NCBI GenBank assembly: GCA_963588075.1 | Contig: CAVAGO010000001.1 | Coordinates: 15,753-79,752 of the forward strand | Reading direction: 5' to 3' | Length of the DNA stretch: 64,000 bases | From: a bacterium | Lineage (GTDB): Bacteria; Bacillota_I; Bacilli_A; RF39; UBA660 | Shown: one piece after another, positions 523 through 60,323 of the stretch | Position numbering within the stretch: position 1 is the first letter of the stretch | How the letters are laid out: each line of letters starts with the position of its first letter | Notes under the pieces: generated by a model | Told to the model about the DNA's origin: nothing | What the model saw: the letters and a program-made list of their open reading frames with translations, nothing else | Databases searched by the model: none | Position numbers and translations under genes: made by a program

Positions 523-1732
523 ACTTTATCGTAGAAATAACAATGGTGTGCCCACTGTTTGGTGGGCTGAACTTGACAGTGGTACTAATAGTATCACTGT
601 TTTTTATGGTCTTGTTCAAGGTAATATTCGTAAAGAAGTTTATGCTGTGACTCAAAAAGATGGTCAAAAAGAACTTGAAAGTAGATATAATGATAAGATT
701 AAACAAGGATATACATATCTTAATGAACTTTGTGATATGCAGGGTTTACCCCCCGTGGAGGATGGAGATAATGATACTCTATTTAATTTTCTAAATACTT
801 ATCTACCTAAAGACCTTAGTAATGGAAACAGTAATCTTTTACTTCCAATGCTTGCTAAAACGTATAGTGGTAATGTTTGGAAAAAAGTCAGTTGTATGTA
901 TGGTCAGTATAAGATTAATGGTCTACGTTGTATTATTACTGCTTATACTCAAAATGATATATTTAAACCTGTTAGGCTTCGTTTTCAAAGTCGTGAAGGT
1001 CTTACTTGGCATACTCTTAGCTATCTTGAAGATTATTTGCTTGCTACTATCAATACAAATATTATCGACGATATGATTAATGGATTTGCAGCACTTGATG
1101 GTGAAGTTTATCTTCCAGGTTATACTGTTAATCAAATTAATCATTTTGTTAAAGATGCTAATTGTGTTGAAAATAAACTTCTTCAGTTTTGGTGTTATGA
1201 TATTATGATGGAAGGTAATCAAACTCATAGAAATACATATCGTTATCATATTAAAATGCCTACTCGCTTTAATAATATTAAAGAACATTATAATAATAAA
1301 GAACGATTGATTATTCTTCCTAGCGGATATATTACTAATGATAATGAAGCTATTGACGCTAGAAATCATTTTATTAATTTAGGATTTGAAGGTCTTATAC
1401 TTCGTAATACCGAAACTGATTATCAATATGGTAGACGTAGAGCTAATTATATGGAGAAGTTTAAAGATGCTGCTGAGGGAGATTTTATAATTCTTAATAT
1501 TTATAAAGAAAAGAAACGTGATTTACCTATTCTTCTTTGTAAAAATGATATTAATAATGAAAAGTTTGAAACTCGTTTAAGCACTAGTCATATTGTTCAA
1601 CAGGAAGTTTTATTCGATTCTCAATCTTATATTGGTAGAACTGTTCATATAGAATATGGTGAACGGAGTGGTGTTAGTAGAGTTCCATTTCATATTAAAA
1701 CTGTTGTTATAAATGGAGATACTAGATTATAA
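515..1732 (+). CDS. ATP-dependent DNA ligase
   Basis: Nucleotidyltransferase motifs are present in order: motif I YKINGLR (KxDG-like adenylation lysine), motif III AALDGEVY, motif IV FEGLILRN, motif V YMEKFK. The ATG at 515 is preferred over the GTG at 506. A GC-motif copy sits in frame at 749-767. Confidence 0.8.
   Translation: MNKLYRRNNNGVPTVWWAELDSGTNSITVFYGLVQGNIRKEVYAVTQKDGQKELESRYNDKIKQGYTYLNELCDMQGLPPVEDGDNDTLFNFLNTYLPKDLSNGNSNLLLPMLAKTYSGNVWKKVSCMYGQYKINGLRCIITAYTQNDIFKPVRLRFQSREGLTWHTLSYLEDYLLATINTNIIDDMINGFAALDGEVYLPGYTVNQINHFVKDANCVENKLLQFWCYDIMMEGNQTHRNTYRYHIKMPTRFNNIKEHYNNKERLIILPSGYITNDNEAIDARNHFINLGFEGLILRNTETDYQYGRRRANYMEKFKDAAEGDFIILNIYKEKKRDLPILLCKNDINNEKFETRLSTSHIVQQEVLFDSQSYIGRTVHIEYGERSGVSRVPFHIKTVVINGDTRL
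749..767 (+). repeat. GC-motif copy, G-type with C-run on + strand
   Basis: ccccccgtggaggatggag inside the DNA ligase CDS, read as GLPPVEDGD. Confidence 0.9.
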
Positions 1733-2096
1733 TGTAATTAAGAATAATAATTTTGATAGAACTAAATCTTATTTTAGTTGTTATTATAAATCTATTATTA
1801 TATTTACTGATTATGATGCTAAAAGTTATAATTTTGCTGTTAGATATAATGATACAACTAAAAGTAATGAACTTTATGTGATTTTGTATAATGATAATAG
1901 AATTAATAATAGTGTTCCTATTATTCGAGATGCTAATACTGGATTTAAGTTATATATTCCTAATATAGTTATTAGACTTCTCGATACAAGATTGCGTAAT
2001 GCTTTTGTTATGTCTAAAGATGATTTTAATATTAATGTTAAGTTTGTAGAAGAACGTAATAGTTTTTGTATTATTTATCATATAGATATTGATTAA
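1713..2096 (+). CDS. hypothetical protein
   Basis: 127-aa ORF that overlaps the ligase stop and is followed by a hairpin plus T-run terminator. Confidence 0.5.
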   Translation: MEILDYNVIKNNNFDRTKSYFSCYYKSIIIFTDYDAKSYNFAVRYNDTTKSNELYVILYNDNRINNSVPIIRDANTGFKLYIPNIVIRLLDTRLRNAFVMSKDDFNINVKFVEERNSFCIIYHIDID

Positions 2097-2099
2097 GGT

Positions 2100-2140
2100 G
2101 AAGCCTAGTACATAAGATATTGTGCTAGGCTTTTCTGTTT
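2100..2140 (+). terminator. rho-independent terminator
   Basis: gaagcctagtac / gtgctaggcttt stem (one G:U pair), 10-nt loop, then ttttctgtttt. It lies immediately after the stop at 2094-2096. Confidence 0.7.
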
Positions 2141-3485: not shown

Positions 3486-4350
3486 AGTTGAACTTTGGCG
3501 TCAAGAAGATGCTAAAGCTCATGTTGCTAGATGTGCTAGAGTTTGTTATGGAAAAGAAACAGGTAATGATGAAGCTACTGTTAAAAGATTAATTAATAGT
3601 AAACATTGGAGTATGTTTCGTCATGAAACTGTATATGCTATGATTCCTATTGAATTATGGTATGGAAATTTTGGAGAAATTCTTAAGGGCTATAAAGCTT
3701 CTCCTTATATTTCATGGGTTACTGTTAGAGATTATATATATGTTTCTACTAATGGTAATTTTATGTTAGATATAGAAAAATATGAACCTGTTTTATATAA
3801 TGAAATTAATAATTATAGAGTTAGTGAAGAAGAATTTAATTCTTGTGAAACTGCTTATAATCTTTTTGCTCGTTGGACATTTTGTGTAGATACTCAAATT
3901 AGTACTTCTCGTGAATTAAATAGAGTTAGTCCTAATAATATTGCTGAAAAATCTACTCGTTATGTTTACGAAGATGGTACTATTTGTAGACCTCATTGGA
4001 TGAGTAATGATATAGCTAATCATTTTAATAATGAACCTATATTTGACGAATGGATTGTTAAAAATGAAGAACATAAAAAAGTTTATTTATATTATAATGC
4101 TTGTGAAAGTAGTTTTAATAAATATCACATTCTTATTGATGAATATAATATGAATCGTCAAGATGCTCGTGGTATTCTTCCTATTGATACTGCTACTCGA
4201 TGTGTTTATACATATTCCACAAAAGAATGGTTTGATATAATTAAGAAACGTGTGTATCATACCACAGGTAAAGCGCATCCTAATGCTACTATTATATGTA
4301 AACTTATAGAACAAGAATTAAATAAACTTGGATATGAAATTAAAATTTAA
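3466..4350 (+). CDS. thyX: flavin-dependent thymidylate synthase (ThyX-like)
   Basis: SRELNRVSPNNIAEKSTRYV resembles the ThyX signature SRQLVRHR..S....SQRYV. QDARGILPIDTATR resembles the downstream AR.vLP motif. A ThyX fits the crAss-like replication module. Confidence 0.65.
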   Translation: MKIIEPKVELWRQEDAKAHVARCARVCYGKETGNDEATVKRLINSKHWSMFRHETVYAMIPIELWYGNFGEILKGYKASPYISWVTVRDYIYVSTNGNFMLDIEKYEPVLYNEINNYRVSEEEFNSCETAYNLFARWTFCVDTQISTSRELNRVSPNNIAEKSTRYVYEDGTICRPHWMSNDIANHFNNEPIFDEWIVKNEEHKKVYLYYNACESSFNKYHILIDEYNMNRQDARGILPIDTATRCVYTYSTKEWFDIIKKRVYHTTGKAHPNATIICKLIEQELNKLGYEIKI

Positions 4351-4981
4351 TTTTAATAAAAGAAATAAATATAAAAATATTTGTTCTATTGAAGGATGTA
4401 ACAATAGTGCTTGTGGTAAATATTGTAATAAACATTATCATCAAATTAAAAGATATGGACATATTAAAACTCGTACACGTTTTGATAAAAATGAAATTAT
4501 TATAAATGATAATGTTGCTAAAATATTATTATATGATAATAATTGTAATGTTATAGATTATACTATTATTGATGCTGAAGATATTAATAAAATTTCCAAA
4601 TATAAAATATCTAAATGTGGAAATTATGCTTATGCTAATATTAATAATAAAAACGTTGCTTTACATAGAATTATAACAAATACTATTAATGAATTAGATA
4701 AAATTCATAATCCTATTGACCATATAAATGGTAATTGTCTTGATAATAGAAAATCTAATCTTAGAATTTGTACTATGTCTGATAATATGTATAATACATA
4801 TAGACAAAGAAATAATTCCACTGGTGTTAGAAAACATATTCAAAAAGGTAAATATATTTCTTATCAAGCGTATATTTCTATTAATAATAAACAAATAAAT
4901 CTTGGTTATTTCGATACTAAAGAAAAAGCTATTATTGCAAGAAAATTTGCAGAAAGAAAATATAATATAAATAGTTTTTAA
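4328..4981 (+). CDS. HNH homing endonuclease with C-terminal AP2 DNA-binding domain
   Basis: HNH core PIDHINGNCLDNRKSNLRICTMSDNMYN, followed by the AP2-like segment GVRKHIQKGKYISYQAYISINNKQINLGYFDTKEKAIIARKFAERKY. The N-terminus is Cys/His-rich (CSIEGCNNSACGKYCNKHYH). Confidence 0.85.
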   Translation: MDMKLKFNFNKRNKYKNICSIEGCNNSACGKYCNKHYHQIKRYGHIKTRTRFDKNEIIINDNVAKILLYDNNCNVIDYTIIDAEDINKISKYKISKCGNYAYANINNKNVALHRIITNTINELDKIHNPIDHINGNCLDNRKSNLRICTMSDNMYNTYRQRNNSTGVRKHIQKGKYISYQAYISINNKQINLGYFDTKEKAIIARKFAERKYNINSF

Positions 4982-6344: not shown

Positions 6345-6350
6345 CTTGGT

Positions 6351-6397
6351 TATACTCCCCGTAGAGGACAGAATTAAGTTCATCCTCCACGGGGAGT
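6351..6397. repeat. intergenic hairpin built from one A-type and one G-type GC-motif unit
   Basis: tatACTCCCCGTAGAGGAc-agaattaagttc-aTCCTCCACGGGGAGT gives a 15-bp stem with a single A:C mismatch on + (G:T wobble on -). It starts 7 nt after the stop at 6344 and has no T-run. Confidence 0.9.
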
Positions 6398-6420
6398 CAA
6401 CACTACTAATCTTGCTAATT

Positions 6421-7622: not shown

Positions 7623-8291
7623 ATGGAAGTAAAAGTATTTAAACTAAAAGAGATTAAACTTATTAGTGGAGATGTTGTAGATGTAGAACAGTATTGTAAT
7701 GTTCAACCTATTCTACCTGCTTATGGTAAAGAAGGTGATGCTTGTATGGATGTTTATCCTATTCTTTGTGAATATGATGTAGATAAAGATAGATTTATTT
7801 ATCATACAGGTTTAGCATTTAATATTGGAGATGATGCTAATGGTGAACCTAATGAAATGTCTTTGCGTCCTAGAAGTAATCTTACTAAATCTGACTTTTA
7901 TATGCCTAATGCTCCTGGTACTCTTGATTGGGGTTATCGTGGAGAACTTCTTATTATTTTTAAGAATCGTACTTCTAGGGATTTAGTTCATGCTGTATCT
8001 ACTCTTGTTGAAGTAGTTGATAAACTTAGAGAACATATGCATTTACCTGATAGTATGGTTGGCAATTCTAGACTTAAACTTAATAATGTTAGAACTACAA
8101 TGACTAACATACTTGCTAAAGTTTCTACTCCACCATATAATTGTGATGGTAAAGATAGATGTTGTCAATTAATTATTAATAGTGCTGAAAGAATTAGTTG
8201 GAAAGAAGTTGAATCTATTGAAGAATTAGGAGAAAGTGAACGTGGAAACAAAGGATTTGGAGAAGGAACAGGAGGAGCAGCTAAAGCTTAA
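7623..8291 (+). CDS. dut: dUTP diphosphatase (dUTPase) with internal insertion
   Basis: Motif I GDACMDVY, motif II RPRSNL, motif III LDWGYRGELLIIF, motif V ERGNKGFGEGTG. Confidence 0.8.
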   Translation: MEVKVFKLKEIKLISGDVVDVEQYCNVQPILPAYGKEGDACMDVYPILCEYDVDKDRFIYHTGLAFNIGDDANGEPNEMSLRPRSNLTKSDFYMPNAPGTLDWGYRGELLIIFKNRTSRDLVHAVSTLVEVVDKLREHMHLPDSMVGNSRLKLNNVRTTMTNILAKVSTPPYNCDGKDRCCQLIINSAERISWKEVESIEELGESERGNKGFGEGTGGAAKA

Positions 8292-9990: not shown

Positions 9991-10161
9991 GGAACCGCTA
10001 CGAGTGCTACGCACTCTTCGCTATACTCCCCGTAGAGGATGGAATGGTAGTTGCGCTAGTAATATTAGTATAGTTATTAATGATAATGATTATATTGATT
10101 GAATGAATACTAGTCTATTCCATCCTCCACGGGGAGTTGAGCGTAGCGAAGCGGAGCGTTC
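9991..10161. mobile_element. 171-bp element with ~45-55 nt imperfect terminal inverted repeats built on long-form GC-motif units (MITE-like or structured RNA locus)
   Basis: Left arm ggaaccgctacgagtgctacgcactcttcgcTATACTCCCCGTAGAGGATGGAAT (9991-10045). Right arm ATTCCATCCTCCACGGGGAGTtgagcgtagcgaagcggagcgttc (10117-10161). A 71-nt AT-rich spacer separates them. The inner 21 nt pair with one mismatch. The arms carry CGCTN/AGCGN pentamer tracts. Confidence 0.6.
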
Positions 10162-10197
10162 TACTAATCCTTAAACTTATAGTCGTTGGCATGACTG

Positions 10198-10465: not shown

Positions 10466-11005
10466 ATGGAATTTAATACTAAACTTAGTAAACTTATAGC
10501 TCGTAGAAAAGTTATAGAAACTAGAAAAAGACTTAATAAAATTGTTCAATCTCCTTTTGAAATAAATAATACTTTAAAAACTGTTTATCAAAATAATGTT
10601 GTAGATAATAATAAAAAATATATTATTACTAGACAAGATTATTGTAGAAATTTTGTTACTATTAATATTGATTTTATTAGTAATATGAAATATTTTGATA
10701 AAGGTGCTAATACTATATTTATACATATATGTAAAAATATAGATTTTAATTCTAATGTAATTAAATTTACCGAAAAAGATATTATTGATGAATATAGTAT
10801 TAGTGTAGAAACTTTTTATAACGGTCTTAATATATTATATAATTTTGATGTTATTAAAGCTACTACTCGTAAATCTGTTTACATAATTAATCATAATATT
10901 ATTTTTAAAGGTAGCATTGGAGATTTTATTAAAGAATATAATAAATATTATGAAAATGTTGATGTTATTATTAATGATAAAGGTAAAGTTATATTAAATA
11001 TATAA
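10466..11005 (+). CDS. RepL-like / winged-helix DNA-binding protein (tentative)
   Basis: 179-aa ORF. ...ANTIFIHICKNIDFNSNVIKFTEKDIIDEYSISVETFYNGLNILYNFDVIKAT...VYIINHNIIFKG resembles the wHTH core and the y.iNP.i.fKG tail of RepL plasmid replication proteins reported in crAssphage (from memory). Confidence 0.4.
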   Translation: MEFNTKLSKLIARRKVIETRKRLNKIVQSPFEINNTLKTVYQNNVVDNNKKYIITRQDYCRNFVTINIDFISNMKYFDKGANTIFIHICKNIDFNSNVIKFTEKDIIDEYSISVETFYNGLNILYNFDVIKATTRKSVYIINHNIIFKGSIGDFIKEYNKYYENVDVIINDKGKVILNI

Positions 11006-11013: not shown

Positions 11014-11355
11014 ATGGTTAGTTTTAAATCTTATAATATCAATAAGTATAGAAATAAACTTATTGATAAACAAAGAAATAGAAAATATATTAATGTATAT
11101 CTTGATTCTTTAAGAGAATTTTATAATCTTACTAATAATGAAAAGAATGTTTTACTTTATATTAATAGTATATATGATAAAACTGAAACTTACTTTGTTA
11201 TTAATACTATATTTTATAATGATTGTGAAGATAAAACTAAAGTTCCAATATCTTCTATAAAATCTGTTTTATATAGTCTTAAAAAGAAAGGATTTATTAG
11301 TAATTATAAAGATAAACATAATAATATTATTAAAGGTTGTTATGTTATTAAATAA
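11014..11355 (+). CDS. small winged-helix-like protein (tentative paralog of the preceding gene)
   Basis: 113-aa ORF. LTNNEKNVLLYI ... ISSIKSVLYSLKKKGFISN. Confidence 0.4.
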   Translation: MVSFKSYNINKYRNKLIDKQRNRKYINVYLDSLREFYNLTNNEKNVLLYINSIYDKTETYFVINTIFYNDCEDKTKVPISSIKSVLYSLKKKGFISNYKDKHNNIIKGCYVIK

Positions 11356-11421: not shown

Positions 11422-14400
11422 TTATTCAAATATATCTTTAGCTATATCTTTATAAGGTATAATACTAAGTATATTTTCATCAAGTTTATAATAACTATTA
11501 TTATTAGGTAAATCAAGAACACGATTAATACTACGAACAACAGGTATATTACGAACAGCCATAACTTCAAACTTATTCATACCTTTATATCTACCAGTAG
11601 TATATTCCTCAGTAAAATCTTCTTCAATAAGGAATCTAGCAGCCATAGCAGTAGTACCAATTAAGTCATTAATAGTTTGTCCAATAGCAACAGGACTAGA
11701 CCATAATTTTTTACCTTCAGCATAAGCTCCAAATGGAGTAAATGAAGCAGCTTCAGAAGCAAGACGGTCAGCATGATAAAGCATAAGATTATATATAATA
11801 CTTTCATCATCATCTCCACCCATACCAGTTATAGCAATTGCTCCAATAATGGCAGCTCCTACATAAAGTAAATCACCTAAATTACGTCTAATATTTGCTT
11901 TTTCATGTTCAGGAAGAAGTTCATAGTTAAGTTTGAAATTAACAGCAAATGAAAGTAAATTCTTACCATAAACTTGAAATGCTTTAAGAACATCACTTAC
12001 ATTATTAATTTCTCCTGCATTACTTTCTTTAAATGGAATAGTCAAATAATCATAAAGACTAGTATAACTACCTTTTTCAACAGTACCTAGAGTTTCATTA
12101 TAATAACCATTCCAACGATAACGTTTCTTAAAACCGGGATAAAGATGTTTATGATATTGCATAACCATACCACCCCACCAATGTTGTTCAATATTAGCAG
12201 AACCAAGTTTATCATAAACACCATGAACTTTCTTATTTACTTCACGAACTTTATCAATAAATTTAGCATATTCTTTAAGAGTAAGTTTACTATCAGATTT
12301 TATTTGAGCAATTCCATCTTTAAGTTCAAACTGATTATAAATATCTGGAAGTTTAGCAAACTTTTTATCAATATTCTTAATAAGTTCTTTACGTTTAGCT
12401 ATATATTCTCTTTGTTGTTCTTCATTAAGATAAGTTTTAACAAAATCGAATATAGGATTAGCTTTAAATAGATTATATTTAGCTCGTTTTTTATTATCAG
12501 CTTTAGCATCATCCATGAACTTATTGAATTGTTCAAGTAGAGCTTGGTTCTCTCCTCCACGGGGAGTATTTATTACAGACATAAGAGCATCTTGTTCAGC
12601 TTTACGATGATACATTTCTTTACTCATTATATCATAACCACCTCTACCATTATCAACAAGTCTATGAGATTTAAGCATAGCAAATAGCATAACATTTTGC
12701 ATATAATGTTCACCAACAGATTGAGGACTAAATAGTAATCCACGAACTCTACGAATATTTTCTCTAAGACCTTCAGCAGTACTAACTTCAGTTACTCTAT
12801 CAAAGTCAACTACATGACTAAGTTTAATAATAGCATCTTGAAGTGTACTACTATTTTCACTATACATATTAGCCATATAACTAACAGTTCCTTTAATCCA
12901 TTCAGATTTACCAGCTTCCCAATCTTTAAGATTAATATATTCACCAGCAGCTCGTTCCATAAATATATTACTAGAACCAGTAAGAACGTTAGCAATACCA
13001 CCAGTTATATTCATCATCATATATTTACTGCCAGCAATATTTTGAGCAAGAGAACCAAGTTTAACTAGATTAGGAGTTTTATTATCCTTATATTGTTCAA
13101 ATACAAGACGACGAATAAAACTTCTAAGATGTTCACTAGTTCTAGTTTGTTTTTCTTGTTTATATTCAATTTCACCACCAGCACTAGCTTCTCTATTCTC
13201 AGTTATACTACCTTTATAATTTATATCATAAGCAGTATTACTAGTAATAATTTGGTCAGCAGTATAAAGAAGATTTTTAACTGTTTTAATAGCATTATAT
13301 CTATTACTTTCAATTAAGAAACTATTAAATACTTCTTCCCAATTACGATTAAGAATATCATTATGAATTTTATTATTCTTTTCAATAATCTCATCTCTAG
13401 CTTTAATAGCAGCAGCTTTACGTTTACTAAATTCTTCATCACTTTCATTAAGTTCTTTAAATTTAGGTATAGTAGGCAACTGTTGAGTATCTTTATTAAC
13501 TAATTGAATTAATCTAGGATTAGGAATATCATAATCTTTATCAAAAGTTAAATCTTCATTATTTCTCCAACTAGTATTATTAGGAACATTGGCTGTCCAA
13601 CCAAGAAAACTAAGAGCTTGTTCAAAGTAATCTTTAACAGTCATATCTTTAGATTTAGGCAAAGCTGGAAGATAACCCATATCAACATATCGCTTATTAC
13701 TATTAGTAAAACAATACTTTTTCATAAGTTCATTTACTTTATTCATAAGTTCAAGTTGATATTCATTAAGATTAGTATAATTAGGATTATCATATCCTGT
13801 TCCTACTTTGTACTTATTAACAAAACTACTATATTCTGGATTAACAAGTTCTTCTTTAGGAGTAATATGCATTTGATTAATACGTGGTTCATAATTACCA
13901 ACAACAGCTGAACCATCATCTTTAATCATTTGCATAGTGGTCCAAATACGAATAGGTTTAATAGTACGAGTATATGGGTCAAAATAATGATTATCTCTAT
14001 ACCATTGTTTATATTCAACACTATCAATACCATATTTGTCAAGAACTTCTCTTTCTTTTATATAGTAATATTGAGTAGTAGTTTCTCTAGTTCTCTTTTG
14101 AAGAATATTAATTGCAGCAGTTCTATCAATATCAGTCCATTTATCTAAATCTTTAGGTTTAATAATACCGTAAATAGTTCGATTAGGTCTTTCTGCAATA
14201 GTTCCATTTTCTTCAACTTGTTCACTAAACACTTCTAACCATTTATCATAATACTTTTTACCTTTAGCAAAAGCTCTATTTTTATCAAGTTCATATTGTT
14301 TCCAATTATAAGTAACATCACATTCACTTTCAATAAATTCAGCAACACGTTTTGCTTTAGCTTTATCAGTACTCTTTTCACCTCTAGTAATTTCATTAAA

Positions 14401-41108: not shown

Positions 41109-41112
41109 AATA

Positions 41113-45818: not shown

Positions 45819-46148
45819 TTAACCAATAGTATTATCAATATCTTTATAACCAACTCCAAGTTTCTTTAGAATAGGACTAACAACCCAACTCCAAAACACA
45901 GGAGCAAGAACAGCACTATTAACAAGCATAATAGCATTATCATATCCAGCAGCAATATAAATACCAGCCATAGCAGCAATACTTATAACTAATACACATC
46001 GTTTTTGCCAAGTAGGAACTTTATTATCGCCATTAAAGTAATCAATAACTTTAATAATAATATAAGTTAGAACATTAACAATAAACATAAATCCAAAATC
46101 AAAATTACTAAGGATTCCATCTACAATTACATCAATAAATTTGTCCAT
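45819..46148 (-). CDS. small membrane protein with three predicted TM segments (holin candidate)
   Basis: 109-aa ORF. FGFMFIVNVLTYIIIKVI, VLVISIAAMAGIYIAAG, LVNSAVLAPVFWSWVVSPI, and a charged C-terminus. Confidence 0.45.
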   Translation of the reverse strand: MDKFIDVIVDGILSNFDFGFMFIVNVLTYIIIKVIDYFNGDNKVPTWQKRCVLVISIAAMAGIYIAAGYDNAIMLVNSAVLAPVFWSWVVSPILKKLGVGYKDIDNTIG

Positions 46149-48611: not shown

Positions 48612-49718
48612 TTAACTTTCAATAGGACTATATATTGTCAATTCACCAATTTTGTTAAGTTTAGTATATTTTATTTCACCTATTGAAGTCTTACCATCAT
48701 CAGCTTTACCACCTTGTGTACCAACATAACATTGAATAGTTTGTTGTCCTCTAAATTCAGAATTACCTGCAACAAAACCAAATCTAAACTCATAGTTATC
48801 AGTATAATTATCGCTATAAATAGTGTTATCTTCATTAAGTAAAACTGTATGATATTCATACGTATAATTATCATCACTATTTATATTAAGACTTGGTTTA
48901 TTAAGAGCTATAGGATTATTATTTGTATTGGCTTGATTATTCCAAACTTTATATTTATCATTAGGTTTATTTTCATACCAACAATAACCATCGCCATGAA
49001 TAAATCCACCTCCACTACGAATTACTTTAATATTATCTAAGCCAATAACTTTATCATCAATTGGATTAATTCTAAAATATTTTACTTCATTATTAGACTT
49101 AGTTATTCTTTTAACAACTTCTCCATACCAACATTCTTTATATCCTATATTATTATCATTAGGCATATTAATTTTACCATCAGCTAAAGGAAAAATATAA
49201 TCTCCTCTAGTATTTACATCATTTTCATTATTACGTAGTTGCCAAGCTTTAACAATAACACCGCCTTTATAAGCAGTACATTCAACAGTAACATGACCTC
49301 TGCTCAAGCTTCCATACCAATTAGCACAAAGATTCATCTTCATTATATCAGGCATTTTATCTTTAAGCTCAATCATAGATTCAATATTAAACATAACACA
49401 TTCAGCACCAGATTGAGTATTATCTCCACCCCAATATAAATATGGTATTTTATTACTATACCAAGACCAACCAACAGCTACATAATTTAAACTATTAATA
49501 GGAGAATTAACATAATATGATTTAGTATCCAAATCTCGACCATCATCACTACCCCAAATATATCTAAGTTGGACACTAGTAAAATCACTAAAATGAATAA
49601 CAGAAGTAGGACAAATATGATTAGAACCATCATAAACATGAGCAATATTAGTTTGACCTACTGTTCGTTTCTTAAGAGGTTTAGCAATTCCTCCTTGACG
49701 TCCAAGAGTTAAACTCAT
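48612..49718 (-). CDS. hypothetical tail-associated protein, 368 aa
   Basis: Uninterrupted ORF whose start overlaps the stop of the upstream fibre gene. Confidence 0.7.
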   Translation of the reverse strand: MSLTLGRQGGIAKPLKKRTVGQTNIAHVYDGSNHICPTSVIHFSDFTSVQLRYIWGSDDGRDLDTKSYYVNSPINSLNYVAVGWSWYSNKIPYLYWGGDNTQSGAECVMFNIESMIELKDKMPDIMKMNLCANWYGSLSRGHVTVECTAYKGGVIVKAWQLRNNENDVNTRGDYIFPLADGKINMPNDNNIGYKECWYGEVVKRITKSNNEVKYFRINPIDDKVIGLDNIKVIRSGGGFIHGDGYCWYENKPNDKYKVWNNQANTNNNPIALNKPSLNINSDDNYTYEYHTVLLNEDNTIYSDNYTDNYEFRFGFVAGNSEFRGQQTIQCYVGTQGGKADDGKTSIGEIKYTKLNKIGELTIYSPIES

Positions 49719-51403
49719 TATTCATCAATAATATTATAAGTCATTCCAGCAACCGGGGTAATAGTTGCATATTGGGTAGCAGTTCCTGTCCAAATTGGAA
49801 GACTAAGTTTATTATTATTTGCACTAGGCATAGTCATATTAACTCCACATCCATCATTAATAGCTTTTTGAATTTTATCAAGATTAACACTATTAGTAAT
49901 AGTTTGATTTATTTCTTCTTTAAAGTTATTAAATGTATCATTAGTAACATACCCATTAAGTAAATTATTAACTTCTTCTTTATTATAAGTTTCAGATTTA
50001 GTATAATAATTTTTAAGTAAGTTATTAATTTCTTGTTTAGTATAACTATCAAATGAAGAAGTATCCCCCATTACTCTCCATTCATTACCATTCCAATAAC
50101 AAATCTTTCCATTACGATATTCAATCTGACCTTTAGCCCAATTACTACAAGTTACATTAGGAAGATATTCAGACTCTTGACCTATCATACCAGCAAGTTT
50201 ACAACCGTTTAAATCAATAGTACCATTTTCAATAATACCACCTTCAAATACAAGTTCACAACCAACAGGCATTGTAATAGTTTTACCACTTAAATCAAAA
50301 GCATAACGAATAATATAACGAGTATTTTCTTCGTTAAGCATATCTTGAGTAAGAACAGCTTTATAATTAAGATAAATATTATTCTTAACTTGAACTAAAG
50401 TTTCTTCATTAAAATAATATTTAATATTATCTACTGAATTAACATATATAATACCAAGTCTTGGACGTTCATCAGAAAGACAAGTATTATAAATATTATA
50501 ATCTTCACTATTTCCATAAACAGGAGTGTTGACCCCCCGTAGAGGATGAACTCTATCAGTAGGTTCTACAATAGTCCATCTAGTATAATAATTATAAAAA
50601 CCAACTCCATCATGAATAGTCTTAACTCTAAGAACAAATAATTTATGATAAGTATCATAATAAATACCAGCAGTATTACCTAAATCTGTTCTAATAACTT
50701 CATATTTATCAGTATTAAGAATTATTTGACCATATTGTTCACAATAAGTATCATCAAGAAAACCATCAAATAAAAGCTGTTCTGCATTACTTGCATCATC
50801 CTCCACGGGGAGTAAGACCTTGCGAACTATTTTATATCCTTTACCACTTTTATATTCAGGCTCATAAGGTCTATCTTTAAGACTAAGACGATTAACATTA
50901 CAACAACCAGGACTTAATCTAAGAGTAATATCTTCTTCGTCAGGATAATTAATAATATTAACTTTACCATTTCCTGCAATCATTTGTTTAAGAGCTTCAT
51001 TAAGCATATTCCAATCAATAGTTCCATCAGCAATTGGAATCTTAGCACCATTCTCTTCAAGATACTTCTCACTAAGAATTTTAGTCCAATTATCATCAGA
51101 AACCCAACTAGTTTCAACTCCAGCTTGAAGATTACTACCTATATAACTTTCAGTTATAGATAGATTATGTTCAGCATCATAATAACTAATAGTAAGACTA
51201 TTACGTCTAAATATAGCAGGTACAGCTTTACGAGTGTTAACTCTAGTTCCTTGATATGGAATCCATAAATGATTAAACCTAGATAGAACAACAGTTAAAT
51301 TATTGTTTGTATCTTTATCAAGAATATTTTGAAGATAAGTAATAGGAAATACTTTATCATAATTATTCTGACTTAGTTTTTCATATAATTGTTTATCATT
51401 CAT
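49718..51403 (-). CDS. tail fibre/spike-like protein
   Basis: The C-terminus LPIWTGTATQYATITPVAGMTYNIIDE shares a W.GTATQYA.I...TY.I tail with the 54741..55517 product. Heptad-like YTKQEINNLLKNYYTKSETYNKEEVNNLL. The ATG at 51401-51403 (MNDKQLYEKL) is preferred over 51499. Confidence 0.65.
   Translation of the reverse strand: MNDKQLYEKLSQNNYDKVFPITYLQNILDKDTNNNLTVVLSRFNHLWIPYQGTRVNTRKAVPAIFRRNSLTISYYDAEHNLSITESYIGSNLQAGVETSWVSDDNWTKILSEKYLEENGAKIPIADGTIDWNMLNEALKQMIAGNGKVNIINYPDEEDITLRLSPGCCNVNRLSLKDRPYEPEYKSGKGYKIVRKVLLPVEDDASNAEQLLFDGFLDDTYCEQYGQIILNTDKYEVIRTDLGNTAGIYYDTYHKLFVLRVKTIHDGVGFYNYYTRWTIVEPTDRVHPLRGVNTPVYGNSEDYNIYNTCLSDERPRLGIIYVNSVDNIKYYFNEETLVQVKNNIYLNYKAVLTQDMLNEENTRYIIRYAFDLSGKTITMPVGCELVFEGGIIENGTIDLNGCKLAGMIGQESEYLPNVTCSNWAKGQIEYRNGKICYWNGNEWRVMGDTSSFDSYTKQEINNLLKNYYTKSETYNKEEVNNLLNGYVTNDTFNNFKEEINQTITNSVNLDKIQKAINDGCGVNMTMPSANNNKLSLPIWTGTATQYATITPVAGMTYNIIDE
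50528..50551 (+). repeat. GC-motif copy, A-type
   Basis: gttgaccccccgtagaggatgaac, read as VHPLRGVNT. Confidence 0.9.
50794..50816 (-). repeat. GC-motif copy, G-type
   Basis: catcatcctccacggggagtaag, read as LLPVEDDA. Confidence 0.9.
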
Positions 51404-51485
51404 AGCTATATAATTAATTTGAATAATTTTAATAAGTAAATAAACAATATAGTTATCACTAACATTGTTATATTGAATAATATTT

Positions 51486-54400
51486 TCATCGTGCTTCAAC
51501 TAGAACTCTTATATTAAATACTATATTATTAGAAGTCATAGTAAATTGACATAGTATAGTAAAACCGGAAACAGTAGTATTAGAATTAACACCAATAATA
51601 GTGCCGTTATTACTTATACTAATACCACTAACTGTACTATAATTACTTAAACTACAGTTATATTTATCACCGCTACCATCTTCATGTTCAAACCAAAATT
51701 GTAATTTACCAGAATAAAATGTACTAACATTAGTAGGAATATATACATAAACACTAACAGGACTACTAATAATATTATTATAAGTTGTTTCTCCATCATA
51801 TATAGTATCTACATTCATACTATTTATATAAATAGGTAATGCAACATTAATAGTAGTAAACTTATTATTTTGTATGCAAAAACGACCAACTACAGGACTA
51901 CCTTGTTGAGTACCTCTAGTAGTATTATTTTGTGAACCTAGCCATCTCCATTCAACATACCATGTTCTACTACTAGTAGAAGAATTAGATAAAACTTGTA
52001 TTCCAAAAGCTATCATATTATCACCTACTGTACTGTCATTACCAACTAGTACATCACAATTAACTTTACTAATAGTTACAATATCACTGGCAGTATAATA
52101 TTTATAAGTAGTACCACCACTTCCTTCTACTCCATTCCAAGTATATTTTTGAGTAGTATATATCTTATAATATACATATATTAATTCTCCATCTGAAGAT
52201 ATATCTTTATCAACTTCACATATATTAGGATAAGTAGTACTATCAATACCGATATCTGGACCAGTTCCATAATATGTAGTATGATATATTACATTTTGAT
52301 AAACTAAACTACCAGCAGATTGAGTAATAGTAATATCTTTAGTAGCACTATCTATAGTAGCTCTAAATACCGAACTACGAGAATTAGTAGAAGTATTATT
52401 ACCATAATTAACAGTTTTACTATTTAATGTTGCAGCTCCACTAACTTTACTTAATGTAGGAGTACCACTATCTTGTTCTGTATAAGTTGTTCCTGTACCA
52501 TTCCATTGCCAAGTTCTACTTCTAGTAGCAGATGTAGATAATGTAGAATTACCGCCAGCAGCAGCTATAGTTGTAGGATTAGCAGTTAAAGTAATATTCC
52601 ATGCTCCCCAATTACTATAAGTTTTACTACCAGCAGATTGAGTAACATCACAATAATTAGAAGAACCACCATAAGAAGCAGTAACTCTAGTAGTCCTAGA
52701 ACTAGTAGAAGTATTATTACCATAACTTAATGTAGTTCCACTTAAAGAACCACTACCACTAGCACTTAATGTAGGAGTGCCACTTTCGCTTTCTGTTCCA
52801 CCTGAACCACTAACTCCATTCCATGTCCAACTTCTACTTCTAGAAGCACCACTATAAATAGTAACAGAACCACCAGATGCAGAAACTGTAAAACTACTAG
52901 CATTACAATATACACTCCATATTGACCAACTTCCATATACTTTACTACCAGCAGATTGAGTAAAAGTAGTATCAACATATTCAGTATCCATAGTAGCACG
53001 AACAACTGTAGATTTACTACTAGTTGTTGTATTATTACCATAACTAACAGTAGCTGTTGTACCACTTACACTAAAACTACCATCACCGCTCTGTTTAGTC
53101 AAAGTTGGAGTACCAGTTCCTTGTTCAGTATAACTTGTTCCTGTTCCATTCCAAGTATATGACCTAGTACGTATAGCAGTAGGAGCACTAACAGTACCAC
53201 TACCACCAGATGCAGCAATAGTAGTTCCACTTGAACTTTTATTAATAGTCCATTTAGACCAACTACCATAAACTTTACTTCCAGCACTCTGACTAATTGT
53301 AATAGACTTAGTAACACCTGAATGGGTAGCAGTAATATTTATACTTCTACTGTTTGTTGATTCATTATTACTAGCAGTAACAGTAGTACCGCTTAAAGTA
53401 AAACCTGTAGCTGTTCCACTAAGCGTTGGTGTAGCAGTTTCTGTATCAGTATGTGTAGTACCAACTCCATTCCAAGTCCAAGTTCTAGAACGACTAGCAC
53501 TAGTAGTTATTGTTGATGTTCCCCCACTTGCGCCTATCGTTTGCGTGCTTGCCGAGATAGAAACAGTCCAAGCAGACCACGCTGAATACACTTTTGCGCC
53601 TGCCTGCTGCGTTATCGTAACCGTTTTGGACAATCCTACATAACTAGCAGTAACTGTCGCTGAACGGGCTGAAATGCTCTCATTTGATGTAAATTTTATT
53701 TGATTTCCACTAAGACTAGCACTACCACTAATACTAAGAGTAGGAGTAGCAGTTTCACTATAAACAGTACCAGTGTTATTCCATTTATAAGTTCTACGAG
53801 CAATATTAGCTGTAATAGTTCTAGTACCGCCTTTAGCTTCAACACTAGTTCCATCAGTTTGTAAATCTAGTACCCAATCAGTATAAACTTTAGCACCAGC
53901 AGCTTGATTTAAAGCAGCACTAACTTCTTTAGTTTGTTTATTTTCTAAAGTAAATATAACAGTTAAAGTTCCACTTTTAGTATTAGTAGATTCATTATTA
54001 GGTATAGTTAATACATTATTACTTATACTACCTAAAGTAGTAGAACTAGTAAAACTAGCAGTAAGGTTAACAACAGTTTCAATCCAAGTTCCAGCATAAG
54101 TAGAACCCTTGGTTATACTCCCCGTGGAGGATGCATAGTCAGTTCGTGTATAAGCAGTCTTAACAGAACTAGTAGAAAGTTTTAAATCATAACTACCACC
54201 AGTTGCGGCTATACTACTATCTACTACTTTTAATCCACTAGTATTATATGTACTTGCTTTACTACCACTAAATGTAACTGTATAACTATCTTTAGCTACT
54301 GCATCATCTATTTGAACAACTAATTTACCATTAGTTATAACTCCTTTTTCTACTCCATCAAATAAAACTTTAACTCCATCTGTAGGAAAAGTAACAGTAT

Positions 54401-54737
54401 AAGATACATATTCTGTATTCCATACTAGTTCTACATTATGAGTTATAGGTAAATAACCACTATTACCTGTAACAGTTTGTGACTGATAATGGTCAGCTTC
54501 AATAATAGCAGTATAATCAGTCTTAACAGGAATAGTAAATACAAATTTAGTATTATTTTTACTTATAACAGGAGTATAACCATCAATAGTAACAGTTCCG
54601 GAAACATTTAAATTAAAAGTAATAGTAACATTAGTATTTTCAGGATAAACAAGTTTAGTACCTTGATATATTTCAAATACATTTATATTACCAACTTTAA
54701 TATCATGTATTCCAATATCTCCTTGATATATAGCCAT
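51486..54737 (-). CDS. tail-associated protein with 5-6 tandem BACON-like (Ig-like) ~105-aa repeats, 1083 aa
   Basis: The repeat unit is AG(A/S)KVY..WS.W.....S..T..ASGG..T......RSR.W.WNG.G....E..TPTLS...G..LSG....YGNN.ST.SRS..V.A......ITQS (about 52330-53910). This matches the BACON-domain pattern reported for prototypical crAssphage (from memory). Confidence 0.75.
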   Translation of the reverse strand: MAIYQGDIGIHDIKVGNINVFEIYQGTKLVYPENTNVTITFNLNVSGTVTIDGYTPVISKNNTKFVFTIPVKTDYTAIIEADHYQSQTVTGNSGYLPITHNVELVWNTEYVSYTVTFPTDGVKVLFDGVEKGVITNGKLVVQIDDAVAKDSYTVTFSGSKASTYNTSGLKVVDSSIAATGGSYDLKLSTSSVKTAYTRTDYASSTGSITKGSTYAGTWIETVVNLTASFTSSTTLGSISNNVLTIPNNESTNTKSGTLTVIFTLENKQTKEVSAALNQAAGAKVYTDWVLDLQTDGTSVEAKGGTRTITANIARRTYKWNNTGTVYSETATPTLSISGSASLSGNQIKFTSNESISARSATVTASYVGLSKTVTITQQAGAKVYSAWSAWTVSISASTQTIGASGGTSTITTSASRSRTWTWNGVGTTHTDTETATPTLSGTATGFTLSGTTVTASNNESTNSRSINITATHSGVTKSITISQSAGSKVYGSWSKWTINKSSSGTTIAASGGSGTVSAPTAIRTRSYTWNGTGTSYTEQGTGTPTLTKQSGDGSFSVSGTTATVSYGNNTTTSSKSTVVRATMDTEYVDTTFTQSAGSKVYGSWSIWSVYCNASSFTVSASGGSVTIYSGASRSRSWTWNGVSGSGGTESESGTPTLSASGSGSLSGTTLSYGNNTSTSSRTTRVTASYGGSSNYCDVTQSAGSKTYSNWGAWNITLTANPTTIAAAGGNSTLSTSATRSRTWQWNGTGTTYTEQDSGTPTLSKVSGAATLNSKTVNYGNNTSTNSRSSVFRATIDSATKDITITQSAGSLVYQNVIYHTTYYGTGPDIGIDSTTYPNICEVDKDISSDGELIYVYYKIYTTQKYTWNGVEGSGGTTYKYYTASDIVTISKVNCDVLVGNDSTVGDNMIAFGIQVLSNSSTSSRTWYVEWRWLGSQNNTTRGTQQGSPVVGRFCIQNNKFTTINVALPIYINSMNVDTIYDGETTYNNIISSPVSVYVYIPTNVSTFYSGKLQFWFEHEDGSGDKYNCSLSNYSTVSGISISNNGTIIGVNSNTTVSGFTILCQFTMTSNNIVFNIRVLVEAR
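54113..54134 (+). repeat. GC-motif copy, G-type with C-run on + strand
   Basis: ttatactccccgtggaggatgc, read as ASSTGSIT. Confidence 0.9.
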
Positions 54738-54740
54738 AAC

Positions 54741-57660: not shown

Positions 57661-60269
57661 GGATTAGAAACACGTTTAATATAATGTAAAGCAATAGTAG
57701 GTAATAGTTTATTAATGGCAAGATAATTTCCTGTCCAATTATCTGTACTAATTTGTTGCCACACCATTTCACCATTTCTACTAATATTAGGTCCAGTCAT
57801 ATACCAATTGGTATTTTTATTAATATTTAAATCCCAATAATTAGTTTTAGTAGTACCATAAGGATAAGTATTTCTACAATCTTGATCCAAAGATCTACCA
57901 TGATCATTTGCTCGCCAGTTACTAGGAACTACAACATGATGATTACCATCACCACATTTACCAGAACTAGCGGCAATTGCATGTTGATGTAATGGTAAAT
58001 CAGTACCACCAATATAAAAACCGTAAGCTCCAATATTTAAACCAGGAGTAGCAGGGTCATAAGTATCACCTACATTTTTAAGAACAGTACTCAAATCAAG
58101 AGTATTTTGTTTAGGATTATTATAAATATTAATACCACCACTTATATGACCCATAACAAATCGTCCTTGAGCAGCAGTATATATTTCCCAACCTGTTGGA
58201 GGTGTAGTAGTATCCCAAAGCATAATAGAACCAATAGGCATAACAGCAGCAATCCAAGTTTGTACTTGAGTAGCAGTTACTCCACCTGTTGTTCCTCCTC
58301 CACTACCACCTGAGCCAAATCCATCATTTACTAATTTATTTTTAATATCTGTATAAAGAGTATTAAAATCAACATCAAGTCTACTAGGTTTAGTTTCACT
58401 ATCAGCAAACTTACTCATAGTAAGATATTTACCTGTTCTAGCTTCACCGAGTTGAGTAGTAGACATAACATTATGAGTGCCATCTCCACCACTTCCTCCA
58501 CCGCCTTCAATACCAGCAATAATATCATTAATTTCAGACTTAGTATAATAATTATTAAGCATAGAATTAACAATATCTCTTACTTCTTGTTCGGTTAATC
58601 CACCGCCGCCAGAACCACCACCTGTAGCATTAATAGTAATAGTACCATCAGAGTTTTCAACAAAAGTAATATTAGTACCAGCTTTAATCATGTTCTTAAA
58701 CATAGAAACATAATTATCTTCAAAATATTGTTTATACTCATTACTTATGTTACCACCACTTTGGTCTATCTTATTAAGAATCTCTTCAATCTTATTATTA
58801 ATATATTGTTCTAGATTATTAATACTACCTTCTACACTACTATTTAAATCTCCAATCTTATTATAAATATCAGTAAATTTAGCGTTATATTCAGTAATAA
58901 GATTATCTATTCTAGTATTAATATTAGAAACTTCTTGTTGGAGATTACTTATCTGTTGGTCATGAAGTTCAAGATGTTCATTAATTTTTCTAAGTTCTTC
59001 AAGAAGCCAAGTATAGAACTTTTCCATTTCTTCTCTTAACTTCTCTAAGAAAGCTTCAAATTCAGCACGAGTAAGATAAACAGATAAATCAAAACCCATA
59101 CTTACCCATTTTTCTCCATCCCAAAACCAATAAAAATCATTAGTATAAGAACCACCCCAACCTGTAATTTCAACTTGTTTATTATCTTCGCCTAAATCAA
59201 GAGGATGATAAAGTATTTGACCTTTAGCCCAATCACCATCTAAAGATATAGTTTCTTTATCAAACATATCTTCTTGACGATAATTACTAAGAAGTCTACA
59301 TTTATTTAGTTTAACAGCTCCATCATATAATCTACCACCTCTCCAAAGAATTATACTATCATCTGGAAGTTCAATAGTTTGTCCAGCTAAACAATAATCA
59401 TATTGAAGTATATAAATAGTATTAGGCTCGTTAATCATATCTTGAGTAAGAGTATTAACACCACTAATCATATTCTTACGAAGATATTTACGAGCCTTTC
59501 CACTATAATCATTTGTATTATAGTCTTTATCTGCAAATTTAAGAAGATTATCAACAACAGTTAAATCTTCTTCATCAGCTGCATTAGTAATCTGTGAAGC
59601 AGTAAACATTTGTTTAACAGATTCACTAAGCATTTCAGGAGTAATCTGACCTTCAAGTATTTGAACAGCATTATCTTCAAAATACTGTTTAAGCACTTGT
59701 GCCATATAATTAACTACAACATTACGACGAAGATAATTATCTTGAATATTAATACCAAATTCATCAGCAACAGCACGTTCTGCAATTGCTCTTGGAAACA
59801 TACCACTAAAAGATTCTACAAATTTAGAACCAATTTCAGAATCAGCCTCAAGATGCCATTTCTTAGCATTATTAACAGGAGTTATTTCATCAAGAATATA
59901 ACTCTTTTTAGTTTCAATAACATAAACTTCACAACCTACTCCAATCTGTTCCCAAGTAAGAGCATCTCTGTCTTCCATTGTAGATACTACAATTCTAGCA
60001 GCTTTAAGACCTCTTTGAACAACAGCAATAAGTTCTAGTATTTCTTTCTTGAAAGTTTCATAATCAATAACTAAATCTTCTCGAAGTTTAGCAATAGGTT
60101 GCCAATACTCTTCATTAGATAAAGGAATACCAGCAGGAACAGCTTTACGAGATATATAGCTAGCATAGAAACCGTCATGAACTATACATAGTCTTTCATA
60201 AGGTCTATCATTCCATTGACCATTACAAGTAAGACTAACTTTACCAAGTTCTTCTTCTATTGTTTTCAT
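57654..60269 (-). CDS. tail fibre protein with coiled coil, Gly-rich linkers and C-terminal phage tail-collar domain, 871 aa
   Basis: PIGSIMLWDTTTPPTGWEIYTAAQGRFVMGH ... GGTDLPLHQHAI matches the Collar-domain pattern (G.I......P.GW..cdG). GGGSGGGG and GSGGSGGG linkers are present. Confidence 0.75.
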   Translation of the reverse strand: MKTIEEELGKVSLTCNGQWNDRPYERLCIVHDGFYASYISRKAVPAGIPLSNEEYWQPIAKLREDLVIDYETFKKEILELIAVVQRGLKAARIVVSTMEDRDALTWEQIGVGCEVYVIETKKSYILDEITPVNNAKKWHLEADSEIGSKFVESFSGMFPRAIAERAVADEFGINIQDNYLRRNVVVNYMAQVLKQYFEDNAVQILEGQITPEMLSESVKQMFTASQITNAADEEDLTVVDNLLKFADKDYNTNDYSGKARKYLRKNMISGVNTLTQDMINEPNTIYILQYDYCLAGQTIELPDDSIILWRGGRLYDGAVKLNKCRLLSNYRQEDMFDKETISLDGDWAKGQILYHPLDLGEDNKQVEITGWGGSYTNDFYWFWDGEKWVSMGFDLSVYLTRAEFEAFLEKLREEMEKFYTWLLEELRKINEHLELHDQQISNLQQEVSNINTRIDNLITEYNAKFTDIYNKIGDLNSSVEGSINNLEQYINNKIEEILNKIDQSGGNISNEYKQYFEDNYVSMFKNMIKAGTNITFVENSDGTITINATGGGSGGGGLTEQEVRDIVNSMLNNYYTKSEINDIIAGIEGGGGSGGDGTHNVMSTTQLGEARTGKYLTMSKFADSETKPSRLDVDFNTLYTDIKNKLVNDGFGSGGSGGGTTGGVTATQVQTWIAAVMPIGSIMLWDTTTPPTGWEIYTAAQGRFVMGHISGGINIYNNPKQNTLDLSTVLKNVGDTYDPATPGLNIGAYGFYIGGTDLPLHQHAIAASSGKCGDGNHHVVVPSNWRANDHGRSLDQDCRNTYPYGTTKTNYWDLNINKNTNWYMTGPNISRNGEMVWQQISTDNWTGNYLAINKLLPTIALHYIKRVSNPW

Positions 60270-60296
60270 ACATTCTCTAGGTTTACTAAATTCATA

Positions 60297-60323
60297 GTGT
60301 AGACCCCCCGTAGAGGATGGAAC
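60297..60323 (+). repeat. GC-motif copy, A-type, intergenic
   Basis: gtgtagaccccccgtagaggatggaac, within the 63-nt spacer between the stop at 60333 and the start at 60269. Confidence 0.9.

Follow-up and report, generated by a model that had tools for sequence, protein, structure and literature searches.

A 64,000-nt stretch of contig CAVAGO010000001.1 (assembly GCA_963588075.1), referred to here as the window, carries a short GC-rich word, CCCCGTRGAGGA, dispersed over both of its strands, and comparison of strains and related genomes indicates that purifying selection acting on the DNA itself maintains this word across the phage family Intestiviridae. The window shares 91-95% nucleotide identity with complete crAssphage genomes and by this alignment is a strain of the prototypical crAssphage, Carjivirus communis, corresponding to approximately positions 17.4-81.9 kb of C. 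communis BK010471; it contains the end of the replication module on the plus strand, and the giant virion RNA polymerase (RNAP) and tail genes on the minus strand. The human gut's most abundant virus is crAssphage, and how it replicates, which signals start its transcription and how it persists without lysis are poorly understood. The word is real, strongly non-random and apparently undescribed, and is probably a dispersed recognition word, of which no example was known from this phage family.

Within the window there are 19 exact matches to CCCCGTRGAGGA, on both strands, and none in 100 dinucleotide-preserving shuffles, in agreement with a first-pass annotation of this DNA, which had put the chance expectation far below one copy. 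Allowing up to two mismatches gives 23 matches against 0.59 expected. All 21 copies that had been listed in that annotation are present, including the two flagged as degenerate. Two copies in the window carry one mismatch: the variant at 17104 (CCCCTTAGAGGA) is fixed in the species, and that at 40587 (CCTCGTGGAGGA) is private to the window strain. Decayed relics are rare, with 2-4 in the window against 19 intact copies, although a genome of 29% GC should quickly decay an unconstrained GC-rich 12-mer. The full reference genome of C. communis (~95 kb) has 31 copies, at the same sites as the window; the motif is by far the most over-represented oligomer in the genome, and most of the GC-rich islands contain it.

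The 15-nt core reads AC[C/T]-CCCC-GT-[A/G]-GAGGA; in C. communis the informative stretch extends to as much as ~22 nt. The A/G position of the core (R) varies between strains at one and the same site. The two flank subfamilies described previously, tatACT and (t)agACC, are real, as is the 3' extension TGGA(GC), which is frequent; by hand calculation the flank type (ACT or ACC) shows no significant association with the R base (10:6 against 5:10). Six window copies are intergenic (6357, 6383, 10028, 10123, 45754 and 60306), while 15 lie inside long open reading frames (ORFs) without breaking them. Translation confirms the earlier observation that these occupy five of the six frames, with the peptides PPVED/LPVED, PRGG, SSTGG/SSTGS, ILYGG and HPLRG; in the unused sixth frame the A variant would read TAG. 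Eleven of the 31 copies in the reference genome are intergenic, the single ones lying 13-54 nt past a stop codon in either orientation to transcription, and copies within long operons are sense and antisense equally often. The copies in the window are as follows.

748-762, plus strand: ACC-CCCCGTGGAGGA, sense in the DNA ligase ORF 506-1732, read as PPVED; site orthologous in other genera.
6354-6368, plus strand: intergenic, 13 nt past the Gam-like gene's stop; forms the left arm of a convergent inverted pair.
6383-6397, minus strand: intergenic; right arm of the pair with 6354-6368.
9995-10039, plus strand: long form, with mini-hairpin GAGTGC-TAC-GCACTC flanked by CGCT and then ATACT-CCCCGTAGAGGA; makes up the left arm of a 146-nt palindrome (10005-10150) that lies upstream of RepL.
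10123-10165, minus strand: long form, right arm of that palindrome; reads CGCTCCGCTTCGCTACGCT-CAACT-CCCCGTGGAGGA on its own strand.
12553-12567, minus strand: giant RNAP ORF 11422-23634, sense, PRGGE; in a 4-7-residue insertion relative to cr11_1 and crAss002.
17104-17118, minus strand: RNAP ORF, relic CCCCTTAGAGGA with one mismatch; identical in the five other loci covering the site.
17908-17922, plus strand: RNAP ORF, antisense, SSTGG.
19013-19027, minus strand: RNAP ORF, sense, LPVED; site orthologous in Delmidovirus cr11_1 and IMG/VR relatives.
21153-21167, plus strand: RNAP ORF, antisense, ILYGG; the aligned position in cr11_1 encodes the same ILYG.
24741-24755, minus strand: ORF 23765-29635 (RNAP-associated/zincin protein), sense, PPVED.
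26988-27028, plus strand: ORF 23765-29635, long form, with (GCTYC)n module CCGCTTCGCTTCGCTCCGCT and then ATACT-CCCCGTGGAGGA; antisense, SSTGSIAERSEAV.
33032-33046, minus strand: ORF 32201-34786, sense, PRGGR; R position unlike that of the reference strain.
33476-33490, plus strand: ORF 32201-34786, antisense, SSTGG.
40587-40601, minus strand: tail tubular ORF 40212-41228, PRGGY, with the private 1-nt change CCTCGTGGAGGA; most other strain fragments covering the site have the intact motif, and cr11_1 reads another frame, SPVED.
40768-40811, plus strand: ORF 40212-41228, long form, with hairpin GGAC-TTTC-GTCC flanked by CGCT/CCGCT and then TGACC-CCCCGTAGAGGA; antisense, SSTGGQAEDESPER; site orthologous in cr11_1.
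45751-45765, plus strand: intergenic, between ORFs 45269-45667 and 45819-46148.
50532-50546, plus strand: tail ORF 49718-51499, antisense, HPLRG; the sole presence/absence polymorphism found (contig L017).
50799-50813, minus strand: tail ORF 49718-51499, sense, LPVED.
54117-54131, plus strand: BACON-domain ORF 51486-54737, antisense, SSTGS.
60303-60317, plus strand: intergenic, 16 nt downstream of the stop of ORF 60333-60860.

Constraint on the DNA word

Within-species constraint was measured on 157 site-instances from loci fetched by terminase homology, and hence independently of the motif. Mismatches occur at a rate of 0.41% at the 11 fixed motif positions, while the flanks have 5.3-6.4% and the free R position has 10.8%; the constraint on the DNA of the motif is more than 10-fold stronger than that on its surroundings. 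At eight orthologous sites shared by C. communis and Delmidovirus cr11_1 the fixed positions are 100% identical except for the last (7/8), and the A at position -3 is invariant too, while the flanks are only ~35-41% identical.

The motif is retained in coding sequence in spite of the codons that it imposes, which are the rarest of the genome: as shares of the codons for their amino acids, CCC (Pro) stands at 3.3%, GGG (Gly) at 2.0%, TCC (Ser) at 1.4%, CTC (Leu) at 1.3% and ACG (Thr) at 2.3%. The peptide encoded at a given site is not itself conserved, as different genomes read orthologous sites in different frames: the primase site encodes ILYGG, NPLRG, YPLRG or YPLQG, and that of the tail tubular protein PRGG or SPVED. 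The conserved entity is the nucleotide string and not a peptide, as the first-pass annotation had argued. The persistence of orthologous sites across subfamilies in AT-biased genomes is not expected of an unconstrained selfish insert.

The motif is found in all four Intestiviridae genera examined, with 26-31 copies in each, in the dialects CCCCGTAGAGGA, CCCC-T-GTARAGGA and TTCCCCCRTARAGGAG. Delmidovirus cr11_1 has 26 exact copies, or 30 with up to one mismatch; the cultured phage crAss002 (subfamily Churivirinae) has ~27 copies of TTCCCCC[A/G]TA[A/G]AGGAG (TTCCCCCRTARAGGAG); and the cultured Rudgehvirus jaberico has 26, with an extra T (CCCC-T-GTA[A/G]AGGA) in 21 and none in five. Relatives with 61-69% terminase identity carry CCCCGTAGAG followed by variable purines. 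The common denominator of the dialects is CCCC-R-T and then a purine run. A scan of IMG/VR recovered the word, with several sites orthologous, from many contigs whose identity to C. communis is only 65-72% or which cannot be aligned with it. At orthologous sites in the primase, the SNF2 ATPase and gp75, each genome carries its own dialect. The recurrence of the same sites in many independent assemblies, and of dialect forms in the cultured crAss002 and R. jaberico, excludes an assembly artefact.

The word is absent from crAss001 (Steigviridae) and cr127_1 (Crevaviridae), each of which has a repeat of its own. In crAss001 (NC_049977) this is a dispersed 9-mer, CTCCAGAAG (at 6485, 8022, 13791 and 21242, for example), with 27 copies in the first 100 kb (17 plus, 10 minus) against ~1.4 expected; its copies are sense and antisense to genes equally, and their flanks are unconserved. 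In cr127_1 (NC_055886) it is a different GC-rich repeat of ~45 nt, taatGGCCACAAGGGCGAGAGGTGTTCCGAAATTCGT, with 10 copies, five per strand, some of them in inverted pairs (positions include 11356, 11912, 28698/28871 and 42040/42232). Part of the cr127_1 repeat, GAGGTGTTCC, seems complementary to the 3' end of Bacteroidetes 16S rRNA.

In such crAss literature as was accessible, covering strings, repeats and motifs, the C. communis phage-plasmid preprint and the 2021 genome survey, we met no account of the motif, which agrees with the earlier remark that no described equivalent in crAss-like phages was known to its author. In a preprint on the virion RNA polymerase, early transcripts are reported to share no upstream motif. 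A scan of 185,579 species-representative bacterial genomes for the inverted pair of motifs gave no Bacteroides match, only GC-rich chance palindromes and one crAss contaminant, and an origin of the motif in the host was rejected on this basis.

Arrangement, mobility and origin of copies

The spacing of copies was tested after merging close pairs, with the null treated identically, and is more even than random in C. communis (coefficient of variation 0.43 vs 0.82, P < 0.001), in the window (P = 0.0008) and in Rudgehvirus (P = 0.002). Nowhere in C. communis are neighboring copies more than 7.1 kb apart, while the largest gap under random placement has a median of 12 kb. Its copies show no orientation bias (18 plus, 13 minus), and successive copies switch strand more often than expected both in C. 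communis (21/30 switches, P = 0.019) and in crAss002 (20/26, P = 0.006). Across the four genomes, close pairs (<130 nt) are convergent, with the CCCC ends outward, in 12 cases and divergent in one.

The strain fragments compared differ from the reference by ~5-6% per base. Among the C. communis-type fragments that align to the reference none has a copy that the reference lacks, and a few copies are point-mutated. A single loss was seen, at reference position 68495, where an in-frame patch of 22 nt replaces 31 nt in contig L017, in otherwise ~99% identical sequence. Mosaic breakpoints form 52 clusters, which lie no nearer to copies than random positions do (5 within 100 nt vs 3.1 expected, P = 0.2); a role as a recombination hotspot was set aside for want of this enrichment. 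No transposase or RAYT occurs among the annotated products of BK010471, in which no dedicated profile search of all ORFs was made. A crAssphage contaminant contig of 659 bp in an Atlantibacter assembly (L183, NZ_JAPTZM010000069.1) joins reference 22890-22954 to 91304-90677 exactly at motif copies, and the repeat evidently causes chimeric assembly.

Comparison between genera gives a view of how copies are gained. The Gam gene reads ATT GCT TAT GGA GAT in C. communis and CTC CTC TAC GGG GAG in cr11_1, where eight substitutions within 15 nt write the motif without a change of length and with Tyr-Gly kept. In the portal and RNAP genes, sites show at most a 1-residue indel, those in Gam and portal being indel-free, and there is no indel at the motif itself in the gp44 site at 35847 or in gp75. 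Other lineage-specific sites coincide with gaps of 4-11 residues (the gp44 site at 30489, and gp73: 7 and 11 residues). On the suggestion that copies are lineage-specific in-frame insertions the sites give a mixed picture, with gaps at gp44 site 30489 and gp73 and none at Gam, portal or the motif itself in gp44 site 35847 and gp75. As judged from these alignments, the motif is not currently mobile and not a fixed-length insert, and new copies appear to arise in place by substitution, with the resulting peptide merely tolerated. The analogy to Rickettsia palindromic elements (RPEs) and to selfish DNA of the repetitive extragenic palindrome (REP) or miniature inverted-repeat transposable element (MITE) type, which had been drawn in the first-pass annotation, is not supported, given a unit of only 15-22 nt that is not palindromic, the lack of new insertions among the strain fragments examined, and the lineage-specific copies gained without an indel, as in Gam.

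The unit had also been described as palindrome-forming, which does not apply to single copies: these fold no better than shuffles on either strand (z -0.7 to +0.6) and have no internal inverted repeat. Strong hairpins are restricted to the inverted pairs, of which there are only 2-4 per genome. The pair 6357/6383 (region 6348-6403) gives a hairpin with z of -6.5 on the plus strand and -7.4 on the minus strand, and the pair 10028/10123 (10005-10150) is a 146-nt near-perfect palindrome (z -9.5), in which two long-form copies surround an AT-rich palindromic center, ~320 nt upstream of RepL. This palindrome may serve as an origin-like or a regulatory structure. An inverted pair like it stands ahead of the second RepL in the reference (95745/95864), and in cr11_1 and crAss002 inverted pairs lie within ~0.7 kb of the end of the giant RNAP gene. 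No T-run follows either window pair, and a canonical terminator at 6357/6383 was rejected for this reason. About seven copies per genome have the long form, in which a GC-rich mini-hairpin or a (GCTYC)n module, flanked by CGCT, stands immediately upstream of the motif; the NNACY repeats around the hairpin are imperfect, and crAss002 has the same module. The motif has no Rfam match and contains no tRNA, and a known RNA family or a tRNA-derived origin was accordingly rejected.

Possible function and alternative explanations

The motif is a short, asymmetric and orientation-independent word with constraint on its DNA, a stable copy number, gain in place and dialects at orthologous sites, and on these grounds we consider it probable that it is a functional cis-acting DNA site read in trans. 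A cis-acting recognition site was among the options raised in the first-pass annotation; the evidence here favors it, and the selfish option is the weaker one. In such a system a single sequence-specific factor acting in trans would read the word as double-stranded DNA in either orientation and would co-evolve with it; a DNA-binding protein encoded by the phage is the most likely candidate. Dispersed sites would let this factor tag, cover or organize the whole phage chromosome, and the process served may be global silencing or persistence, self-marking, replication or compaction. New sites would come about chiefly where they stand, through substitutions and small indels in loops that tolerate them and in short spacers between genes. 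The more specific proposal, that the copies are dispersed binding sites for a co-evolving and probably phage-encoded factor that tags or organizes the chromosome, is one that we advance tentatively.

Properties of the sites and the outcome of the search for a reader both weigh against a functional site of this kind. The same 1-nt insertion within the motif is found at ~21 coding and non-coding sites of Rudgehvirus, which would be hard to achieve by independent point events and easier by copy-paste conversion; concerted evolution by gene conversion would mimic both purifying selection and dialects. Unlike classical operators, the sites are inside genes in two thirds of cases, and their spacing is at best weakly even in cr11_1 (P = 0.09) and, with the strict pattern, in crAss002 (P = 0.41). 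Phyletic profiling of C. communis proteins against cr11_1, Rudgehvirus, crAss002, cr127_1 and crAss001 yielded six (gp19, gp22, gp23, gp57, gp84 and gp86) that are present in all four Intestiviridae genomes and not in cr127_1 or crAss001. None of the six has a Pfam or PHROG match, a search of the PDB with the sequences of gp19, gp23, gp84 and gp86 gave no significant match, and no recognizable reader emerged among these family-specific proteins. The product of gp23 (window 40-522, its gene start cut by the window edge) is basic (pI 9.5) and unusually variable, with 75-95% identity among C. communis strains, in which variants of about half coverage also occur. Its AlphaFold2 model (pLDDT 75) has a confidently predicted helical N-terminal domain and a disordered basic tail, and shows no significant fold match in the PDB and no recognizable DNA-binding fold.

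Candidates outside this set were also considered. The 'IHF-like' gp52 was rejected, as it matches Pfam CrAss_Ring_2, a tail ring protein; gp51, likewise an IHF-like candidate, has no Pfam match. RepL is an unlikely reader, since that of the window shares a mere 38% identity with gp43 of the reference while the motif is the same in both, and crAss002 yielded no RepL.

Among the alternatives, a selfish GC-rich mini-element of the kind represented by yeast mitochondrial GC clusters, RPEs or MITEs, which would be spread and homogenized by short-patch gene conversion and tolerated only in loops and spacers without any function for the phage, is unlikely but best explains the 31-to-22-nt patch in L017 and the 1-nt insertion that 21 Rudgehvirus copies share. 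The genome-wide change of dialect, including the 1-nt insertion in 21 Rudgehvirus copies, fits copying from a master, and the element is GC-rich in a 29% GC genome, lies in indel-prone loops, coincides in some cases with insertions of 4-11 residues relative to relatives (gp44 site 30489, gp73), is intergenic in 11 of 31 copies and has a long form in which a hairpin module is accompanied by short NNACY repeats. Against this, sites are fixed, with no new insertion in the C. communis fragments examined, several gains are free of indels, and very few copies are decayed despite strong AT pressure. The element has no terminal inverted repeats and no palindrome, there is no transposase or RAYT in the record annotations, mosaic breakpoints are not enriched near copies, spacing is even, and the number of copies stays at 26-31 over four genera.

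The length and asymmetry of the word, the presence of copies on both strands with an excess of strand alternation, and the resemblance of the single lost copy to a local repair scar would suit the target of a site-specific nicking or cleaving enzyme, comparable to the phage T5 nick site or to a homing-type nickase, which would introduce breaks for replication, recombination or transcription; the family also encodes DNA ligase, RecT and a PD-(D/E)XK nuclease. We nevertheless think this quite unlikely, as breakpoints are not enriched near sites (5 vs 3.1, P = 0.2), the HNH genes are strain-variable, and a published read-end analysis of C. communis gives one terminal region and not ~30 peaks (10.1101/2024.03.20.585998).

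It is improbable that the word is a signal read by the host, either one that attenuates a Bacteroides nuclease in the manner of Chi or one that acts as decoy or roadblock against a defense system. Sites are dense, evenly spaced and in both orientations, dialects differ between phages of different Bacteroides hosts, and crAss001 carries a different dispersed word; against these points stand the lack of orientation bias, the Gam-like nuclease inhibitor that the family encodes, the absence of the inverted pair from any Bacteroides genome among the 185,579 species representatives, and the length of the word, since to our knowledge all known Chi sites are far shorter than a specificity of 15-22 nt.

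An element acting at the level of RNA (a hairpin, a processing site or a Shine-Dalgarno-like ribosome-interaction site) is very improbable: the purine half of every dialect does resemble a Shine-Dalgarno sequence (GGAGGA, AAGGAG; e.g. window 757-765) and is often directly followed by ATG or TGG in C. communis, the 3' half varies mostly by purine transitions that would keep G-U pairing on the complementary strand, and inverted pairs fold strongly, but copies are sense and antisense equally while only one strand of long operons is transcribed, single copies fold like shuffles, there is no Rfam match and the pairs lack T-runs. We do not treat the Shine-Dalgarno likeness as functional because half of the copies are antisense.

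Returning to a functional site read in trans, the upkeep of a 15-nt word at ~30 sites per genome throughout the family, paid for in rare codons and changed proteins, points to an important and previously undescribed process that is sequence-specific. A broader and rather doubtful extension is that the Crassvirales carry a hitherto unrecognized system of genome-wide self-tagging, with one dispersed word per family and a co-evolving phage-encoded reader; the words, on this equally doubtful assignment, would be CCCC-RT-purine run in the Intestiviridae, CTCCAGAAG in crAss001 and the 45-nt repeat in the Crevaviridae. If this were true, the reader would control a core step of crAss biology, such as silencing of the whole genome while the phage persists or is plasmid-like, telling self DNA from non-self, or access of the single-stranded-DNA-dependent virion RNA polymerase to its template. 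The reader could be sought with motif oligonucleotides in the cultured crAss002 and Rudgehvirus, and from the dialects it can be predicted which of its residues should co-vary. The motif may also serve as a lineage marker, and is a cautionary repeat for assemblers.

Genomic setting and comparison with known systems

GC skew changes sign in the window at ~11400, from ~+0.2 to ~-0.2, where gene orientation passes from the plus to the minus strand. The window differs from the reference at several loci. In the segment 3466-4981 a free-standing HNH_3 endonuclease ORF (4328-4981) follows a thymidylate synthase allele with only 72% identity to that of the reference; the HNH segment is absent from BK010471, and the arrangement looks like a homing-endonuclease insertion with a conversion tract. 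Conversely, the dUTPase gene of the window (7623-8291) has no intron, while the reference has a 1,024-bp intron with an HNH gene at 24467-25490. The segment 9803-11355 is a replacement cassette, and reference 27372-27957, which covers most of the N4 gp49-family gene gp41, is without counterpart in the window. The RepL of this cassette (10466-11005) has 38% protein identity to reference gp43 and is followed by a small ORF (11014-11355) with weak matches to winged helix-turn-helix (wHTH) and DnaD-like proteins.

Among known systems, the nearest analogues of the motif are the DNA uptake sequences (DUS) of Neisseria and uptake signal sequences (USS) of Pasteurellaceae with their dialects, the P1 C1 operators, the KorB sites, and the matS, NBS and SBS sites. 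A Chi hotspot is a word of 5-8 nt with a strand or orientation bias which stimulates exchange nearby, whereas the motif is 15 nt long, alternates between strands (18 plus, 13 minus) without polarity, and, by the indirect test of 52 breakpoint clusters, exchange lies no closer to it than to random positions. The nick sites of phage T5 are likewise a specific sequence that recurs over a phage genome of ~100 kb with a function that is not understood; they are few and on one strand only. Yeast mitochondrial GC clusters are GC-rich islands in an AT-rich genome, occasionally in frame and possibly subject to gene conversion, as the motif is; the clusters are palindromic and optional between strains, while the motif sites are fixed, evenly spaced and conserved across subfamilies.

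RPEs, REP/REPIN sequences and MITEs resemble the motif as repeats that occur in frame in ORFs and in spacers, with a few inverted pairs. An RPE is 100-150 nt long and forms a long hairpin, in contrast to a unit of 15-22 nt that is not palindromic, and MITE and REP elements have terminal inverted repeats or an imperfect internal palindrome, together with target-site duplications. The short form of the motif has no internal inverted repeat, and the motif shows no sign of transposition among strains and is accompanied by no annotated transposase; some of its gains, moreover, occurred without insertion.

A closer likeness is found in dispersed operators and organizer sites, namely the P1 C1 operators, the RK2 KorB OB sites, matS/MatP, NBS/Noc and SBS/SlmA, in which tens of 13-17-bp sites are spread over a genome of ~60-100 kb or a chromosomal domain, some of them inside genes. 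The P1 operator is asymmetric and can form inverted pairs, as the motif can, and C. communis has been proposed to be a phage-plasmid, as P1 is. The differences are that two thirds of the motif copies lie deep in large late genes and not at promoters, that no repressor or ParB-like gene was recognized here, and that matS, NBS and OB sites are palindromic while the single motif site is not.

The DUS and USS are words of competent bacteria, occurring at ~1 per kb, while the motif belongs to a phage without uptake machinery, occurs at ~1 per 3 kb and has a longer and more GC-rich core, so that the likeness is one of logic only. This likeness covers a short, specific and over-represented word on both strands, in genes and spacers; coding copies in tolerated frames; new copies formed by substitution in place; inverted pairs just downstream of genes; a spacing more even than random; and lineage dialects that can be tracked at orthologous sites.

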